Assembly (NCBI GenBank): GCA_951813565.1
Contig: OX638351.1
Span: 4,448,001 to 4,512,000, forward strand
Direction: 5' to 3'
From: an uncultured Poribacteria bacterium
GTDB taxonomy: Bacteria > Poribacteria > WGA-4E > WGA-3G
Length of the DNA stretch: 64,000 bases
This document shows positions 5,771 through 64,000 of the stretch, piece by piece. The notes beneath the pieces are model-generated. The model saw nothing but the letters and a program-made list of their open reading frames with translations. It made no database searches and had not been told where the DNA came from. The position numbers and the translations under genes are program-made. How positions within the stretch are numbered: position 1 is the first letter of the stretch; each line of letters starts with the position of its first letter.

Positions 5771-6667
5771 ATGGAATGGTCACCCCGAGTAAAACCTATC
5801 AAAATTCGTCGTTTATACCGATTTGCACGGCTTGGTATCTATGATGATATGTTGCTACATGATGTAGGGTGGGAACTATATGCTCGCTGTGCTGATATCG
5901 CGACGGTTGCCGATGTTTATCGTGAGGGACGTGTGCCTTGTCCACAATGCAGCACAAAGATAGCGCGGCAGATTGACCCGCTTTTTAGTAAAGTTGAAGG
6001 TGGGACTCGCGAGAATTGGTTTCGCTGCTTGCACTGTGGAGAAAGACTTCTTTGGCGCGATTGTCGTCAAGCACTGCGTGATACGCCGCGATGTTTTACG
6101 TGTCGTTCTGTCCTAAAGCAAAATGATGACTTGCAGTGTGCTTGTGGGAAAACCTGGGCCCAAGTAGCCTACAATCAGTCGGTGAGAACCCGTGTTCGTT
6201 TACCGTGTCCTCATTGTCATAATCTTGTCCGTAGACCAGATAAACCTCCGAAAACGCAAACCGCCAAACATCAGCAATCTAAACCCGAATTACAGTGTCC
6301 GAAGTGTCAAGAGACGGCACTGCATGTTTCTGGTAACATTCAGTGCACAGTGTGTGATTATAAACGTAGGTGGCGAGATTATCGTAAAAGTTTAAAAAAG
6401 AAAGATGAAAAACTTACTTGCACAGACTGTGGATATTCGTTTAGATGGCAAGCATGGCGAAAAAGCACGCAGACACTCAGAACCGGCAATCCCAGACCAG
6501 CGCGTGAATTTATCCAAAAATGGCTTAGGTGCTACACACCACAACAACGTATGATTCAGATAGATACCTTACTGCAGACGTTGCACGGTAGAGGCCCCTT
6601 AGCACCGCTGTTTATTGATAGTGGCGAGCATAATATCCGCCAGATGCTTGATGATTTGGCATCGTAG
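5771..6667 (+). CDS. Multi zinc-ribbon hypothetical protein
   Basis: Seven CxxC plus one CxC knuckle, in four repeats each followed by a W..Y/W.+S helix. Confidence 0.7.
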   Translation: MEWSPRVKPIKIRRLYRFARLGIYDDMLLHDVGWELYARCADIATVADVYREGRVPCPQCSTKIARQIDPLFSKVEGGTRENWFRCLHCGERLLWRDCRQALRDTPRCFTCRSVLKQNDDLQCACGKTWAQVAYNQSVRTRVRLPCPHCHNLVRRPDKPPKTQTAKHQQSKPELQCPKCQETALHVSGNIQCTVCDYKRRWRDYRKSLKKKDEKLTCTDCGYSFRWQAWRKSTQTLRTGNPRPAREFIQKWLRCYTPQQRMIQIDTLLQTLHGRGPLAPLFIDSGEHNIRQMLDDLAS

Positions 6668-8888: not shown

Positions 8889-9081
8889 GAGTGTATCTCA
8901 TAAATCAGATTTTGTTAGGTTCGCTATGTTTTATCTAACGCTTCCTCATATTGTAGGGGCGGGTCCCTGTGCCCGCCCATTGTTCCATCTTCAAGACATG
9001 GCGAGGCACCAAATCAACGGTCCGAATGCCTGATGGCATTCCCCGGGACCTCGCCCTACAAATGATTTATGAGATAGGTTG
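8889..9081. mobile_element. MITE (GAGYGTATCTCATAAAT ends) enclosing a GTAGGGGCG REP pair, with a 35-nt micro-element at 9010-9044
   Basis: Inverted homolog at 45558-45718, which lacks the micro-element. Confidence 0.7.
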
Positions 9082-13308: not shown

Positions 13309-13880
13309 CATAGATGTCATTTAGTGTAATATCTCTCTTGTGGGAGGGTTTTGTCCGCCCGATTTTGTGAGACTCAAACTGTAAAATCCAAATCAACGCT
13401 GAATACGCCAAATCAAGAAATCAACGGTATGAATCATGGCGAATGCCATGCGCGCATTCGTCTTTAGTCATTCACCGGGTATGAATGCCTATTGGCATTC
13501 CCCGTATGGTATTCATCCAAATCAACGCAGCATGCGCCAAATCAACGGTATGAATGCCATTTGGCATTCCCCGTATGGCATGCTGCGAGGTTGAAAACCC
13601 GACAAATGCCAAAAAGCGCATTTGGCGTTGATTCACTCCCACAAGAAGGTGTATCCTAAAGTTTACACCTATGGGTAGAGCGAAGCGAAACCCAACAATT
13701 CAACCGTCTTGAGAGTCCTAAAGAGTTGGGTTTCACTTATTTTTTCGGAAATATCGACCTAAAATAGGTCAACAACTTCTCTTTAGGGCCTGTTTTTATT
13801 GTCCATTTCCGTTCTACCCCACCGAATGCCATAGGCGCATTCGGTGTTGATTCCCTACGGGATTTATCAAACTCACGTTG
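13309..13880. repeat. Cluster of REP-like palindromes with four-level nested micro-elements
   Basis: Repeated (C)CAAATCAAC starts, GAATGCC/GGCATTC hairpins, GTGGGAG...CTCCCAC REP halves. Confidence 0.8.
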
Positions 13881-27240: not shown

Positions 27241-27905
27241 GGGTGTGTAAATATTTGGTTACATAGGTTCAATTTGCAATGATTACGCGGCGTTTTCCAC
27301 TGTAGAGCGGGGTCCCGGGGAATGCCATAAGGCATTCATACCGTTGATTTGGTGCCCCATAGCCGTCAATTTAAGGATATACCCTCTTGTGGGAGTGAAT
27401 CAACGCAGCATGCGCCAAATCAACGGTATGAATGCCTGTTGGCATTCCCCGTATGGCATGCTGCCAAATCAACGCCAAATGCGCTTTTTGGCATTTGTCC
27501 AAATCAACGCAGCATGCGCGTTTGGCATGCTGCGGGTTTTCAACCCCGATAAATACATATAAATCGGGCTTATAAAGCCCTCCCACAAGAGGCAATCTGG
27601 TAATTGTGTGCTTAAATTGATGCCTATGGGCGGGGTCCCGGGGAATGCCATAAGGCATTCATACCGTTGATTTGGTGCCCCGCCACTGCGCAGGACGTGC
27701 CATGCAACGGGCAGGCACCAAATCAAGAAATCAACGGTATGAACCATGGCGAATGCCATACGGGGAATGCCAACAGGCATTCATACCGTTGATTTGGCGC
27801 ATTCGTCTTTAGTCATTCACCGGGTCCGAATGCCTTTTGGCATTCCCCGGAGACCCGCCCCTACAACAGGAGTTGTGCGGATTTCTACAAAAACTTTACA
27901 CACCC
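27241..27905 (+). mobile_element. ISKra4-end MITE, copy 2 (665 bp, expanded by nested insertions), 9-bp TSD
   Basis: Same ends and body as 7610-7858. TSD TGTATCTGG at 27232-27240 and 27906-27914. Confidence 0.9.
27358..27628. mobile_element. CATAG-end MITE nested in the above, 52-bp DR
   Basis: IR CATAGCCGTCAATTTAAG/CTTAAATTGATGCCTATG. DR at 27306-27357 and 27629-27680. Confidence 0.85.
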
Positions 27906-55372: not shown

Positions 55373-58300
55373 TTATTGATCTGCCGAATCGTCAAGTGAA
55401 AAGCGGAGTACGCCCTTTCCTGCCGTTCCCACATAGAGGGTGTCTGCATCAACGTCAAAAGAAAAAACAAAATGTGGGATTTCTGGCGTTACTTGTTGCC
55501 ACTTGCCAGTGTCCATGCTCAATTGATATATTTTATGGTTATATTCGCCGTAAACCGTTGTGTCATCGACTGCCAATCTTTTCATAGCGAGAGGTGTTCC
55601 TTCGCCGTCAGTGAGTGTGTGCCAATCAGTTCCGTTGCCTGAACGGACAACGCCTTTGTCAGTTGCCACATAGACAAAGTTTCCAGCGAAGACTATATTC
55701 TTGAAATGGTCTACAGGAAACGGCAGATTTGCAGTGACATCGTTCCACGTGTTTCCTTCATCAACAGATCGCATGAGACGACCATCCAATTTCCCGACGT
55801 AAACAGTACTTCCCAAAACAGCAAGTTTAAAACCGACAGCAAGTTTAGAACGGATAGATTCTAAAGTAACAACTTCGCCAGATTCAAAACTAACACCTTC
55901 ATCTAATATGCCCGTGTCCGACCATTCAGCTATGCTTGGTTCCAATTTGAAGAGTTTGTGCATGTATTCCACATAGTATGTTCCGTCGTTAACAGCAAAA
56001 CATCCAAGCATTGAAGTATAAATACTACCCTTTCCTTGTGTCACAGATCTTATAGGTCTCCTATGAGTAGTATTCATTTCCTCCAATTCTTCCAATGCTT
56101 TGTGTGGGTCATATACATTAAAGGCGGGTACTTTAGAAGCGTCAATGAGTCTATTATCTTTGGTAGATAAACGGTAAAACCGAGGTGTCCCAATTTTATC
56201 GTCTCTCACATATAGTTGCCCATTAGATTGCGCAATACGTGTGATATAACCAGTATCGCCTGGAACAGGTGTCCACGATTCTCCACCATCAGCTGAACTG
56301 AGAAGTCCACCATTCGACTGCGCGTAGAGGACACCGTTAACAGCAATCAATTCACTGATATATGTATTTACGAATCCAGTATTGAATTGATGCCACGTTT
56401 TTCCTCTATCTGTGGTGCGATAAATTCCCAATCTTCCAGATACTCCGAATTTTCCAGATACATAGAAAGTATTCTCATTTAACGATGCCAAACCAGAAGT
56501 CTCACCTATATTATCCGTTTTGTCTGAGGTTCTCCAAGTTTCACCTGCATTGATAGAATAGAAGCATTTCTCACCCTCAATCAATATCACCGTTTCCCCC
56601 GCTGCAGACATTTTGAAGGTAGTATTCACTTGTGTCCTAAAGGGAACATCGCCTTCATTCTGGCGCGGTGGAGATATATTGGACAATTTAACCTTCTGCT
56701 GTGGTTTATTCTTTATATTCTTCTCGTCTGGCGTTATTGCATGCCATGAATCGCCCCGGTCATCTGTACGAAAAAGAGACCACACGTATAGTTGTTTTAG
56801 CTGCTTAATTTCCAATTCCGTCGGTATTGTACTAGTAAAAGAGATAGTTGCATTAAGTGGAACATAACCAGATCCAAGAAAACTTTTCTTTGTCACAACA
56901 TAGAGACGGTTATCTGTAACTGACATTGCAATAATAGGTAGCGTGTTTCCTTTCGTATCTGCTTGAACGATGGACAATTGTTCCCATTTATCGGCGTTAA
57001 GACGATAAAGTCCTTTGTCAGTACCGACAAAAACAGTATTTCCTACATTAGTGATTACGCCAACTTGTCTATCGTTGATACCTTCGGGCAATGGTGTCCA
57101 TGAATTGCCAGCGTTATCTGATCGAAATACGCCTTTCTTGTAAGCAAGGTAAATCGTCATATCACTTTGTCCACCTGGTATTTTATCCGTTATGACCATG
57201 CTGACAAGTTCACCTTTTATACACTCACAAAATTCTTTCCATGTCACGCCTCTATCTGTAGAAGCAAAAATCTTTGAATCAATAGCACGGTAGAGCGTAT
57301 TCTGCCACTCTGCTACATGCCGAAATGCATTCCTTCCCATTGCTGCATAACGCGAGGAATCTTTGATAGTGTTTATGAGTTTCCACGACTGTCCATTATC
57401 TGTGAGTCTGTAGAGACCGCTTTTTGAGAGACTGCTTTTTGCCGTTGCATACACGTCACCACGGTTTGTTGTGAATAAGGTAGCAACTATGCCACCCTCG
57501 GGACCTTTGGGATCACTCCATTGTCGTTTCGATTTTGAAATTTCTATGTCATCTATCTGTGCTGCAGCGAACAGTGGCGCGTCCGGTTTTTGCCCTATTC
57601 CTTCGGGACTACCAGTTACATCAGATTTCCCGACTTGAGTCCGCACCGCTGGTTTTGCTGGCATGTCAATGACAAGTTGTGTCTCTGTTATTTCAATCTT
57701 CGGTTCAGATTGTGCGTTTAAGCTATACGGTCTCTGAAAACGAATCAGATTTTGCGCCCCAACTCCCATTAACATTACCATTAAAATGGCAGCGGCAGCG
57801 GAAACTGCCAATGGCACCAGAGGTTTATTGCCTGAAGGTGCTACCGGTTTTAGACGTGAAATTTCCTTCATGATATTCTCTGTCATTTGTGTTGGCAGTT
57901 GGAAACTGCTAAGATTTTCTTGAATCACTGCTTCCTCCTTCTTTAAGCGTTCCCGGGCGCGATGCAGCCGACTTTTAACCGTGTTCGGCGATACACCCAA
58001 AAACTTACCGATCTCTTCACATGTTAAACCTGCAAGGTAGTGCATCGTTACCACTGTCCGTTCACTTTCTCGGAGTTTATTGAGCAGCTTCCGAACAATT
58101 GCTCGCTGATTTTGATTCGCTGCTTCTTCACGTTGACGAGACGTATATTCGGAATAATACACCTCTTCTAATTCCATTGGGTCTGTCTCCTCCAGAGATT
58201 GTAGTTTCGGTTTTTTCTTTCGGTGCCACATGTTACACTTATTACTGGTAATGACATAGAGCCATCCAGCAAATCGGTTGTGATGTGTGAGGGTTGAAAG

Positions 58301-58477
58301 TTTTTGATACGCTGTGATGAAAGCATCTTGTGTTATCTCTTGCGCAATATGGAAATCACCAATTTTCTGCCACGCCAGCGCGTGTATCTGTTCTTGGTAT
58401 TTTTCTACAAGTGCAGCAAAGGCGTGTTGATCACCTTCAAGTGTGCGTTCAATCAACTCAGCATCATTATGTTTCAT
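55373..58477 (-). CDS. ECF sigma-70 factor fused via a TM segment to a BNR/Asp-box beta-propeller
   Basis: Sigma r2/r4 (AQEITQDAF, GVSPNTVKSRLHRAR), hydrophobic LAVSAAAAILMVMLMGVG, repeated S.D.G.TW boxes. Confidence 0.88.
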   Translation of the reverse strand: MKHNDAELIERTLEGDQHAFAALVEKYQEQIHALAWQKIGDFHIAQEITQDAFITAYQKLSTLTHHNRFAGWLYVITSNKCNMWHRKKKPKLQSLEETDPMELEEVYYSEYTSRQREEAANQNQRAIVRKLLNKLRESERTVVTMHYLAGLTCEEIGKFLGVSPNTVKSRLHRARERLKKEEAVIQENLSSFQLPTQMTENIMKEISRLKPVAPSGNKPLVPLAVSAAAAILMVMLMGVGAQNLIRFQRPYSLNAQSEPKIEITETQLVIDMPAKPAVRTQVGKSDVTGSPEGIGQKPDAPLFAAAQIDDIEISKSKRQWSDPKGPEGGIVATLFTTNRGDVYATAKSSLSKSGLYRLTDNGQSWKLINTIKDSSRYAAMGRNAFRHVAEWQNTLYRAIDSKIFASTDRGVTWKEFCECIKGELVSMVITDKIPGGQSDMTIYLAYKKGVFRSDNAGNSWTPLPEGINDRQVGVITNVGNTVFVGTDKGLYRLNADKWEQLSIVQADTKGNTLPIIAMSVTDNRLYVVTKKSFLGSGYVPLNATISFTSTIPTELEIKQLKQLYVWSLFRTDDRGDSWHAITPDEKNIKNKPQQKVKLSNISPPRQNEGDVPFRTQVNTTFKMSAAGETVILIEGEKCFYSINAGETWRTSDKTDNIGETSGLASLNENTFYVSGKFGVSGRLGIYRTTDRGKTWHQFNTGFVNTYISELIAVNGVLYAQSNGGLLSSADGGESWTPVPGDTGYITRIAQSNGQLYVRDDKIGTPRFYRLSTKDNRLIDASKVPAFNVYDPHKALEELEEMNTTHRRPIRSVTQGKGSIYTSMLGCFAVNDGTYYVEYMHKLFKLEPSIAEWSDTGILDEGVSFESGEVVTLESIRSKLAVGFKLAVLGSTVYVGKLDGRLMRSVDEGNTWNDVTANLPFPVDHFKNIVFAGNFVYVATDKGVVRSGNGTDWHTLTDGEGTPLAMKRLAVDDTTVYGEYNHKIYQLSMDTGKWQQVTPEIPHFVFSFDVDADTLYVGTAGKGVLRFSLDDSADQ

Positions 58478-58513
58478 GGAACACCTCACAAATAGACTAA
58501 TCTTTTAATATAA

Positions 58514-58693: not shown

Positions 58694-60152
58694 GGGTGCG
58701 TAAAGTTTTGGTTATAAGTGTCATGCTGCCTGTGGGAGTTCATTCCAATATTTGTCCCAGTCCCCATTTTTCACTAAACACCGTAAGGCAAGCACCGGGT
58801 TGATACCTTTCTCTTTCCACCTCATAGCAGCTTGTGGACACCTTTGTCCGACAACATGTGGACAGGCACTCTCAATCACACCACTCCCGATTTGATACCC
58901 TTTTTCCCGAAACTTTTTATACCGCGGACGAGCAGCGTGTTTTTCAAAATACCGTGCTTCTCTTTCGAAAATATCCGATACTTCCGGGTGCTGTGTGCCT
59001 AAGCCACGAATGCGTGCGGCTACTTCTGTAATGTTGCCATCATAAAGGATAGGTTCTGTCGTTTTTACCCAGTCTTGTATCGCCTCTGTTTCAGTCTCTC
59101 CGAACGCAACTTTAGCAACATCGGACAGATGAGATTTCGCGTGCTTGTAATCCACAATCTCAACAGCATTGGGAAAGTATTCATCTGCTAAGTTCCAAAT
59201 CCACGCAGCACCATCACCAAGAAACACAATCTCTTGCGTATCAATAGCTTCTTGGTAGATGCCACTATTGGTTGCTAACGCATATAACTCCTTACCAAAA
59301 TGTGCCGCATCATTACGCGTTGCAACATAACGGATACTTGTCTCTCTCGCACTTGACACCGCATCAGAACCACATTGTGGATAATCTCTGTAAACACAAC
59401 CGACTTTTGTCTCTTTCCACCCATCAGTAGAGTTGGTGTAGCATCCATCACAACTTACATACCAACGCTGATTAGCCGCAAGTATTTGCGGTTCAACTTG
59501 TGCTGACACGCTCAAGTCTGACGACCACTCAAGCACTTTTTCGCGCACTATCGTATGGCTCACTTCTATCCCTTGAAAAGCCAACGCTTTCGCAGCAGCT
59601 CTATAGTCAAGAAGGGCAGACAGACGACACATCGCTTCAGCAACACGACGCGTGTATTGACCCAATAACTTCTGTTTGACCTCCCACGGCGCGTGACGAT
59701 GTCCTTGTTCACAACAATACACCCAACGATTTACGCTTGTTTTTCCACAAAGTGTTGTGAAATAACGCGCACGCATACGCAATGGACGACAAAGTTCTTG
59801 ACACGCTGGACATTCAACTGGTTCACGCTCTTTCTTATTTGACTTTTTAGAAACACACATTTCTAAAAACTTTTGTTTAAAAGAACAAAATGCTTCGGAA
59901 ACACGGACTTCAACATCACCTAAAGATAAACCCTCGTCAGAATTGATGTCTACATAAAGATCGTTGATCTCTTTTACAAACTCGTTAAAATCTGCTTTGT
60001 AATCGTTGCCTTCACAAGGACTTAATGATATACTTGGCATTGGTATCCTCTCCTATAATAGTGTGATAATTATTAGGGTAGGATACCAGTTATATACATT
60101 TTCTACAAGAACTCCATTCATTTCAATTTCATGCCAAAAACTTTACACACCC
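58694..60152 (-). mobile_element. ISKra4/ISLre2-like IS, copy 2 (1459 bp)
   Basis: Left end matches copy 1; right end GGGTGCGTAAAGTTTTGG is divergent. Confidence 0.9.
58721..60040 (-). CDS. Transposase, ISKra4/ISLre2 family
   Basis: 439 aa, mostly identical to 28027-29346. Confidence 0.9.
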   Translation of the reverse strand: MPSISLSPCEGNDYKADFNEFVKEINDLYVDINSDEGLSLGDVEVRVSEAFCSFKQKFLEMCVSKKSNKKEREPVECPACQELCRPLRMRARYFTTLCGKTSVNRWVYCCEQGHRHAPWEVKQKLLGQYTRRVAEAMCRLSALLDYRAAAKALAFQGIEVSHTIVREKVLEWSSDLSVSAQVEPQILAANQRWYVSCDGCYTNSTDGWKETKVGCVYRDYPQCGSDAVSSARETSIRYVATRNDAAHFGKELYALATNSGIYQEAIDTQEIVFLGDGAAWIWNLADEYFPNAVEIVDYKHAKSHLSDVAKVAFGETETEAIQDWVKTTEPILYDGNITEVAARIRGLGTQHPEVSDIFEREARYFEKHAARPRYKKFREKGYQIGSGVIESACPHVVGQRCPQAAMRWKEKGINPVLALRCLVKNGDWDKYWNELPQAA

Positions 60153-62505: not shown

Positions 62506-63354
62506 TTAACGTGCAACCGCTTCTGAACCAAGATTTTCTTGAATCCATGCGCGGAGTGGTACATCCTTGTCACCAGGGGAAGTATACCCCATTCCACCTG
62601 TGCTTTTGCCTAAAATCTGTTGGCGAATCGGGTCCGATTTTTCCATATAATGTTCCACCGTCATGTTGTCTCGCGGTTGCAGCCAACGGTAACTATAACC
62701 GTAAAAAATCACCTTACGCATAATGTCAGATGTATTGCGCCCCACTGCATGCCATAACCTACGGTCAAAAAAGACTGCCGTTCCCGGTTTAGCAAAAACA
62801 GACGTAGCGTTTTCTGGATTAGCCTTATCATCATCAGGCATTTTAACCTTGTTGAATTTTTGACTGCCCGGTATCACAGAAAAGTTACCGCGTCCTGGCA
62901 CAGACGTATCAGTCAAAAAATATGCAACTTTCAATGATACACGCGGGCGTGGTTCACCTTCCAATTCAATGTTGAGTCGTCCACTATCCTGGTGCCATCC
63001 AAGACGGCGCTGTTTGTTTTGTTCTTCAGGTGGGAGCGGTGGTAGTGCTATTAAATGTGAATGGTAGAGTTTGATATTCCAACCCAAAATTCCCCACACT
63101 TTTGGAAACGTTGTGTGCCAATCCAACATCTCAATAAAGATATTATCTCTACCGACGAAGTCAAGTATGTTGAAACTTGCATCGGGAGGAAGTTCGTCTT
63201 TGCCCAAGTGTTCCGCGCCAACACGGTCAAAAGCGACAATCAATTTCTCAACTATTTCCTGTGGAATGGCCTCTTTAACGACAAAATAACCGTTGTCCTC
63301 AAATTGTTGTTTTTCCGATTCGGTCAAACAGTGTTCTAAACATAGCGGGTCCAT
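62506..63354 (-). CDS. PhyH-family dioxygenase
   Basis: GWHQDS, VIPGS, PGTAVFFDRRLWH. Confidence 0.88.
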   Translation of the reverse strand: MDPLCLEHCLTESEKQQFEDNGYFVVKEAIPQEIVEKLIVAFDRVGAEHLGKDELPPDASFNILDFVGRDNIFIEMLDWHTTFPKVWGILGWNIKLYHSHLIALPPLPPEEQNKQRRLGWHQDSGRLNIELEGEPRPRVSLKVAYFLTDTSVPGRGNFSVIPGSQKFNKVKMPDDDKANPENATSVFAKPGTAVFFDRRLWHAVGRNTSDIMRKVIFYGYSYRWLQPRDNMTVEHYMEKSDPIRQQILGKSTGGMGYTSPGDKDVPLRAWIQENLGSEAVAR

Positions 63355-63527
63355 TGTTTTCCCCTATATGAGCAGTGCTTTAGTTTGCAAAAGTCTATAT
63401 TGAATTTACATTCTTGTCAACGTCAATATATTTCAATTGTCACTATGCTCTCTTGTAGGAGGGCTTTGTCCGCCCGATTTATATATGCCAAAACTGAAAT
63501 TATCTGAGCGCAAATGAAAAAGTTCAA

Positions 63528-64000
63528 TCAATGAAAATTCCATGCTGCTGTTATATATTTTGTATTAGCTAACATTTCTGCCTGTTTTTTCTCTGTTAGA
63601 GACAGTTTTCCTGAATTAAACGTAATTCCGGGGAATGCCATTAAGGCATTCATACCGTTGATTTGGACCTCAAATGTTTCACAGATTGCTTGAATGAGTG
63701 AACTTCTGGTTATAAAACGTCCATCCATATTTATAGCTGCAGATTTATCGCATAACATTTCCTGAATCTCAGGGCGTTGTGAAACGCGCTTAAGGATAGG
63801 GTCCGGTGGCATATCCAAGGAGATATACCCTTGGAACAGTATACCGTTTCGATTGCGTCTTGTTGAAACGCCTGCCAGTTTTTTACCGTCGCACATCACA
63901 TCGTTTTCGGCAGGATTTGTCAGGCAAATATTATGGGAAGATTGCGAAAGATCCGCAGTAGCACTATAACATTTTGCTGGAATAGCAAGTTTCTCAAACG
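63528..64000 (-). CDS. Lipoate-protein ligase/octanoyltransferase (LplA/LipM family), C-terminal part, with a 12-aa repeat-derived insert
   Basis: Frame is open to the window end: CLTNPAENDVMCDGKKLAG...QG...KY...W. Confidence 0.82.
   Translation of the reverse strand, partial: FEKLAIPAKCYSATADLSQSSHNICLTNPAENDVMCDGKKLAGVSTRRNRNGILFQGYISLDMPPDPILKRVSQRPEIQEMLCDKSAAINMDGRFITRSSLIQAICETFEVQINGMNALMAFPGITFNSGKLSLTEKKQAEMLANTKYITAAWNFH
63630..63665 (-). repeat. 36-nt micro-element inserted in frame (encodes QINGMNALMAFP)
   Basis: Matches the intergenic CAAATCAACGGTATGAATGCC-N-GGCATTCCCC repeat. Confidence 0.88.

Follow-up and report, generated by a model that had tools for sequence, protein, structure and literature searches.

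The SDRs of Nostoc, described by Elhai and colleagues in 2008, are reportedly structured cyanobacterial repeats of 21-27 nt. They are said to insert precisely, to sit inside other repeats and copies of themselves, to occur in genes and to have no known mover. Rickettsia palindromic elements (RPEs) are about 150 bp long and nearly half of them lie in ORFs, as stated in a passage of PMC10969869. Some REPs of the GTAG/CGTC type are located within housekeeping genes, including copies at about the same recB site in two Xanthomonas species (a section of PMC3733652). Precise insertion into HIP1 is given for SDR5 in an excerpt of PMC4390886. With Rickettsia RPEs, intragenic REPs and cyanobacterial SDRs on record, the type of event described here is already known and comes as less of a surprise.

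We analyzed a 64,000-nt stretch, called the window, of a sponge-symbiont genome from an uncultured Poribacteria bacterium (assembly GCA_951813565.1; G000). Positions 63630-63665 of the window sequence are one unit of a genome-wide repeat, 36 nt or 12 codons long. Read on the minus strand, the unit is in frame and encodes QINGMNALMAFP, residues 228-239 of a 272-aa LplA/LipM-like ORF. The ORF covers 63528-64346 (G000:C1:4511528-4512346), past the window end. Its 3' part in the window (63528-64000, minus strand) belongs to an LplA/LipB-family catalytic domain by domain and structure matches, and the start is at window-equivalent position 64346. At its 5' end the unit has a 9-nt tag common to the repeat family (63657-63665, minus strand). 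The hairpin (63633-63651) has a perfect 7-bp stem, 63633-63639 pairing with 63645-63651, and a 5-nt loop at 63640-63644. Fold prediction forms this stem in the sense RNA of all three genomes that carry the insert. A search of Rfam with positions 63300-64000 gave no match at E values up to 1.

The initial annotation had placed the repeat in frame within this ORF and expected orthologs to lack exactly its 12 residues, and the alignment bears out both points. The gap is exactly 36 nt or 12 aa, lies on a codon boundary and shows no duplication of the target. The 12 codons are absent, exactly, from 38 of the 41 aligned orthologs (36 from the genus and five from other genera), those of the other genera included. 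Because the closest empty allele, that of G014, joins a Val codon directly to a Gly codon, no target was duplicated. The insertion point lies between a C and a G and adjoins a host hairpin with a 6-bp stem and a 4-nt loop (63613-63628). This hairpin also folds in the insert-free G014, though not in every non-carrier, and is possibly part of the insertion target. That the repeat creates new peptide is supported only at the level of the sequence.

Set against the RPE features in that passage of PMC10969869, the unit is alike in being a palindromic repeat that is in frame, occurs in unrelated protein genes, is absent from orthologs (four events) and has predicted structural tolerance. It is unlike them in its length of 35-36 nt, its asymmetric tag-plus-hairpin build and its copies, almost all of which are intergenic. 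The RPE analogy drawn earlier is fair for the in-frame palindrome and the same peptide, but coding insertions are rare exceptions here. The REP/REPIN-RAYT systems, as sections of PMC3733652 and PMC3116915 present them, are likewise tagged hairpins of 20-40 bp, mostly intergenic with some in housekeeping genes; the unit differs from them in its AATCAAC-type tag, which is neither GTAG nor CGTC, and in its single insertions into REP-like repeats. It departs from MITEs in having asymmetric ends and, at lplA, no target duplication beyond a possible 1-nt ambiguity. By description the unit resembles SDRs, reportedly also shorter than 40 nt, structured, precisely inserting and nesting, and differs in being 35-36 nt long and confined to a single Poribacteria genus among the 8 genera sampled. 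The literature searched, supplements aside, held no account of this repeat in Poribacteria.

Each unit consists of a tag of 7-9 nt, an AATCAAC-type motif, and then a hairpin. The repeat has several subfamilies, and its roughly 550 copies in G000 are far above chance; one 11-mer, for example, occurs 519 times against about 12 expected. The subfamily pattern is present in 23 of 24 relatives from the genus and in none of 16 genomes of other genera. In the window, a core search located five intergenic 35-nt copies nested in REP-like repeats (27320-27845) and two intergenic copies with 4-nt loops (13483-13569), both serving as comparison sets, and further single cores at 9024, 20243 and 55078. Ten copies in the window have 4-nt loops, of the eight sequences TGAT, TATT, ATTT, AAAA, ATAA, TGTT, AACA and TTTT. 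The lplA copy is the one among 11 with a 5-nt loop, as the initial annotation had said, but genome-wide it is not alone. Loops of 5 nt occur in 40 of 259 exact hairpin cores in G000, the nearest other one 605 nt ahead of the window start. The 36-nt form prevails in some relatives (27 of the 39 listed copies in G013 and 20 of the 22 listed in G018). These cores and the 36-nt copies of relatives rule out, beyond the window, a 5-nt loop unique to lplA. Exact matches to the loop variant of lplA number 65, spread over 12 of the 40 genus genomes. Of 30 of these loci that we inspected, most were inside other repeats, and none but the two lplA copies looked coding. The 36-nt form is a standing variant, mostly between genes, and not a product of the lplA site; selection therefore likely sorted existing variants.

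In G000 we compared 36 distinct flank contexts, mostly loops or feet of other hairpin repeats. A C is at position -1 in all 36 and a G at +1 in 35. The lplA site, with its small adjoining hairpin, agrees with this C|G step. One insertion in a WD40-type gene is at an A|G step, so the preference is not absolute. The unit can land in unique, non-repeat DNA, and the view that it can move without a REP or MITE carrier is upheld. Intergenic copies are short-lived: 19 of 30 copies from G006 and G052 have a syntenic region in G000, and one of these 19 regions contains a unit, a different one. A strand bias by replication direction was not evident in G000 (p=0.06-0.08, with replichores unclear). A unit with the same loop as lplA is part of a 160-bp repeat found at G000:C1:187860-188020 and six other sites, and also in G006 (L156). 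The copies of this repeat in G000 and G006 are 97-99% identical and the genes of the pair 84-88%, which suggests that it moved recently between species. As an autonomous parent of the unit the 160-bp repeat was rejected, with no transposase inside it and a shared part of about 160 bp. In G049, intergenic head-to-tail arrays (L235, G049:C5:1377877-1378202; L236, G049:C6:362506-362761) hold 7-9 or more units with mixed loops and yield spurious ORF calls in protein databases. The non-coding array L235 mixes 35- and 36-nt units.

The host protein matches PF21948, for which it is the single match in G000, and PF03099, for which the other G000 match above the cut-off is BirA. No other gene for a lipoate-attaching enzyme turned up in this genome. 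Nor did G000 (95% complete) yield an LplB domain, LipL or a second lipoyl transferase, and LipA-like, GcvH-like and E2 lipoyl proteins are present. Like LipM and the archaeal LplA large subunit, the protein has a single catalytic domain, and its best fold match is T. acidophilum LplA (2ART; Z 28.4, rmsd 2.3 A, 237 residues); it is unlike them in its 12-residue insert and its NCBIfam scores, all far below the cut-offs. Ten conserved family positions are invariant in 41 of 41 orthologs, including C141 and K156, which we take to be the catalytic Cys and Lys of LipM. Judged by gene content, the protein is likely a LipM-type octanoyltransferase rather than a ligase, since LipA is present without LplB or LipL, a combination that occurs with LipM in the part of the scheme set out in PMC10332631.

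Estimates of dN/dS are 0.20-0.27 for the carriers (mean 0.23) and 0.11-0.21 for seven non-carriers (mean 0.17). Whether or not the insert is included, AlphaFold predicts the same listed helices and strands. The insert is modelled as an extension of the 4-residue turn that joins helix 214-224 to the strand after it, with pLDDT below 50 at residues 231-239. A structure model had been suggested as a check for a surface loop, and it returns a low-confidence loop at a helix-strand turn. The insert is likely a tolerated and probably harmless loop of 12 residues, as far as these predictions go. A 151-nt contig from an RNA library covers the 3' end of the gene, not the insert, and may be DNA. The lplA of G009 (L013) has a 4-residue tandem duplication near residue 34 that is unrelated to the repeat.

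Genes in G000 were called with a simple caller of our own (4281 genes, 82% coding). Only four of 554 tag-plus-hairpin matches start in called genes of this mostly coding genome, one of them a real unit, and one housekeeping gene is hit among about 550 sites. Three of 139 tagged copies are inside G000 genes, all 36 nt long, and derive from two independent events, lplA and an ISAs1-like remnant. Both independent in-gene events are 36 nt long, compared with 15 of the 136 tagged copies that lie outside called genes (p=0.014, Fisher test). A scan of 548 sites in G000 for genes broken by the unit gave two matches, neither convincing, and no frameshifted gene; it is a partial test, with a power of 74% and 1.2% false positives. 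The scan missed lplA itself because the short C-terminal part scores poorly. For the relatives, 81 and 57 matches or arrays were inspected at selected loci. Two of the genus searches and most loci chosen for retrieval admitted 5-nt loops only, and the unbiased count is that from G000.

Four independent coding events were found, in lplA, the ISAs1-like remnant, an Omp85 gene and a WD40 gene, all of them whole 36-nt units free of stop codons. Three paralogous transposase remnants, which we take to be ISAs1-like, have an in-frame 36-nt unit (G000:C1:4876792, 3913161 and ~3110750), just before a conserved Asp. The Omp85/POTRA gene of G001 (L201:319-3504; G001:C4, ~6063-6170) contains three tandem 36-nt units in the reverse frame. 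They add 36 residues to the N-terminal periplasmic part, an exact 36-aa gap relative to G000, and are missing from 7 other orthologs viewed. In a WD40-type gene (L259-L270), 6 of 12 orthologs (G013, G008, G014, G002, G017 and G054) have one or three in-frame units just past the start codon, 10 units altogether, with point changes and unit turnover. Neither the WD40 insertion nor the lplA insert is present in G012 and G048. The two commonest 5-nt loops would place a TAG stop in the lplA frame. These results support a frame filter acting on coding copies and, on top of length, a second filter on stop codons. Coding copies of 35 nt that shift the frame, which would have spoken for the opposite, are not among the four events. 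The initial annotation is supported in holding that selection kept a frame-preserving variant, but not in making the 5-nt loop special to this copy. A peptide search of protein databases, along the lines it had suggested, returned, for the forward peptide, lplA clusters only (4 matches among 6 candidates of 149-476 aa) and, for the reverse peptide, 8 short ORFs (42-103 aa), apparently miscalled on intergenic arrays.

Among 38 genus orthologs, the insert is present in three (G000, G006 and G052) and has the same sequence at 36 of 36 positions. Two of the 38 genes are outside the alignment, and their match lengths fit the empty form. Further occurrences are in a metagenome contig of independent origin (L190; one difference over 819 nt), in run contigs of three studies and throughout the five-member G000 protein cluster, where the insert is invariant. 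The insert is no artefact. The database protein P0001 equals G000 up to residue 241 and is G006-like beyond, and may be a natural recombinant or an assembly chimera joined through the shared insert. The rpoB tree rejects a carrier clade (AU p=2.5e-101), and two changes suffice on it, with the insert gained at the root of a group of six genomes (support 99/98) and lost in G002/G012/G048. With lplA itself, the insert removed, a carrier clade is not rejected (AU p=0.118). Carriers group weakly in the tree of the upstream gene (61/79), where third-position distances are 0.19-0.22 among them versus 0.32-0.38 to G002/G012/G048, and the downstream gene rejects the clade (p=0.0005). The locus is a mosaic, with 130 of 495 triplet scans significant for recombination. 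The insert as a recombination hot spot was discarded, with 11 of the 130 significant breakpoints within 40 nt of it and larger peaks elsewhere. One old insertion followed by shuffling of the allele between species by recombination likely fits best.

We consider it probable that the locus records a single ancestral in-frame insertion of 36 nt into the one LipM/LplA-family gene found in G000, without target duplication, that was kept because it is a multiple of three, stop-free and in a turn predicted to be tolerant. The sample of coding cases is small, at four events. A merely tolerated old insert should have drifted, so the zero variation counts against this reading, as do the slightly higher dN/dS of the carriers and the rejection of a carrier clade by rpoB and the downstream gene. 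The carriers differ at 181 of 780 other lplA sites, or 8.3 per 36 nt, and at none in the insert. Invariant 36-nt windows among them number 1 of 249 in lplA, 0 of 1268 in rpoB and 4 of 725 in the 2.2-kb locus. As a control, the first WD40 unit has 6 variable sites among its six carriers versus 9.6 expected from the flanks, and none of 20 triples is invariant (1-6 variable sites each). Coding units vary somewhat less than their flanks, with the lplA insert as the extreme. Repeated or homing insertion, correction from other copies, function or post-hoc chance could explain the zero variation. It is doubtful that an active process keeps the 36 letters of the insert unchanged across species, be it through rewriting from the repeat pool, homing without flanks, or a role as a loop or mRNA hairpin; if true, the insert would be among the smallest homing or domesticated elements.

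We think it unlikely that the same site was hit several times, or that a homing-like process carried the unit from species to species into the empty site with hardly any flanking DNA, either of which would leave three young, identical copies. Youth of this kind would fit the lack of any difference in the insert despite a dS of 0.46-0.50 between carriers, and the carriers form no clade on rpoB or the downstream gene, though they share a closer haplotype upstream of the insert. The flanks of G052 share states with the non-carrier G008 up to the junction. A C precedes the junction in all carriers; yet the C|G step is kept and empty in the non-carriers G014, G008, G003, G020 and G023. The variant is abundant in G017, G054 and G014, and the near-identical 160-bp repeat with the same loop in G000 and G006 indicates that repeats move between these species. 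Among the carriers, however, G000 has a single copy of the exact tagged variant (1 of 123 exact-tag units) and so does G052 (1 of 24), in each case at the lplA site only. Contigs of the three runs show no 36-nt skip, and contigs drop rare variants.

Co-option of the insert, in which the 12 residues or an mRNA hairpin lying roughly 100 nt ahead of the stop codon would be useful (for stability, partner choice or mRNA protection), seems improbable to us. About 6.7 synonymous sites are invariant, although a single pair should by itself show about 2.4 changes there, and the invariance extends over three species and the five G000 cluster members, while intergenic copies turn over as fast as the syntenic comparison with G000 indicates. 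The stem forming in the sense RNA of all three carriers would suit a hairpin with a role. Against this, the close relatives G002, G012 and G048 do without the insert, and its loop is modelled with low confidence. Other in-gene units also fall below their flanks (6 versus 9.6), so part of the excess is general, and the observation is a single, post-hoc one. Correction against hundreds of other copies could also hold the arms without function. A decaying gene or an assembly artefact is very improbable: several private G000 substitutions follow the insert and P0001 changes from G000-like to G006-like as a chimeric contig could, but the insert recurs in three species representatives, contig L190 and contigs from three studies, the ORF is intact with a dN/dS near 0.2, and LipA, GcvH and an E2 lipoyl domain are present while no further lipoyl transferase turned up.

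Under a single, tolerated insertion, units of 35 and 36 nt would insert at C|G steps, mostly in or beside small hairpins, and these hairpins belong for the most part to intergenic repeats. Those rare units that land in a gene would be purged unless in frame and free of stops. The lplA unit would lengthen the 4-residue helix-to-strand turn and, according to the model, leave the enzyme working. Frequent recombination among co-occurring species would then have replaced the allele or passed it on, giving the patchy pattern. The locus would thus present a 36-base selfish repeat that adds peptide to a probably needed metabolic enzyme in a clean, dated case, with filled and empty orthologs side by side. 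Together with the three other coding cases it points to a two-step filter, length and then stop codons, on standing variants, and to the tandem growth of new peptide in 12-residue steps. For the question of how tiny repeats move, the lplA site offers a defined non-repeat target and donor.

Since insertion is precise, duplication-free and at hairpins, a single-strand mechanism may apply, by analogy with the HUH transposases in the portion of PMC3116915 that deals with them. G000 has 10 Y1 matches, both IS605-type and RAYT-like. A called unit lies within 2.5 kb of 2 of these 10 versus a background of 28%, with no apparent enrichment of units near the Y1 genes of G000. In G023 (92% complete), 76 copies occur without any Y1 or RT match, and G017 has 116 copies with one Y1 match and no RT match. 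Y1 or RT presence does not track copy number (5 relatives for Y1 and 4 for RT), which speaks against either as the mover. A RAYT/TnpA-like Y1 nuclease of the single-strand HUH type, acting in trans, is a tentative candidate, and an unrecognised host enzyme is equally so. We regard a reverse transcriptase as rather unlikely, and movement by other routes just as much so.

Five of the G000 Y1 genes are RAYT-like, two of them with a stop, and lie among REP-like repeats (G000:C1:5070893, 3549623, 242089, 3098010 and 1368721). Five are IS605-type tnpA genes, four of which are followed by tnpB-like sequence (G000:C1:228440, 2158799, 3745735, 4320373 and 2036476). The rpoB of G054 (L088, L089; G054:C9:487858-492264) has an in-frame extra segment of about 650 bp, possibly an intein, and encodes 1555 aa versus about 1343 in relatives. 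Elsewhere in the window, a 439-aa ORF at 58721-60040 has a weak UPF0236 match (E 9e-4) and is likely a transposase. At 55373-58489 the window encodes a 1038-aa fusion of an ECF sigma factor with a BNR/sortilin-like propeller region.
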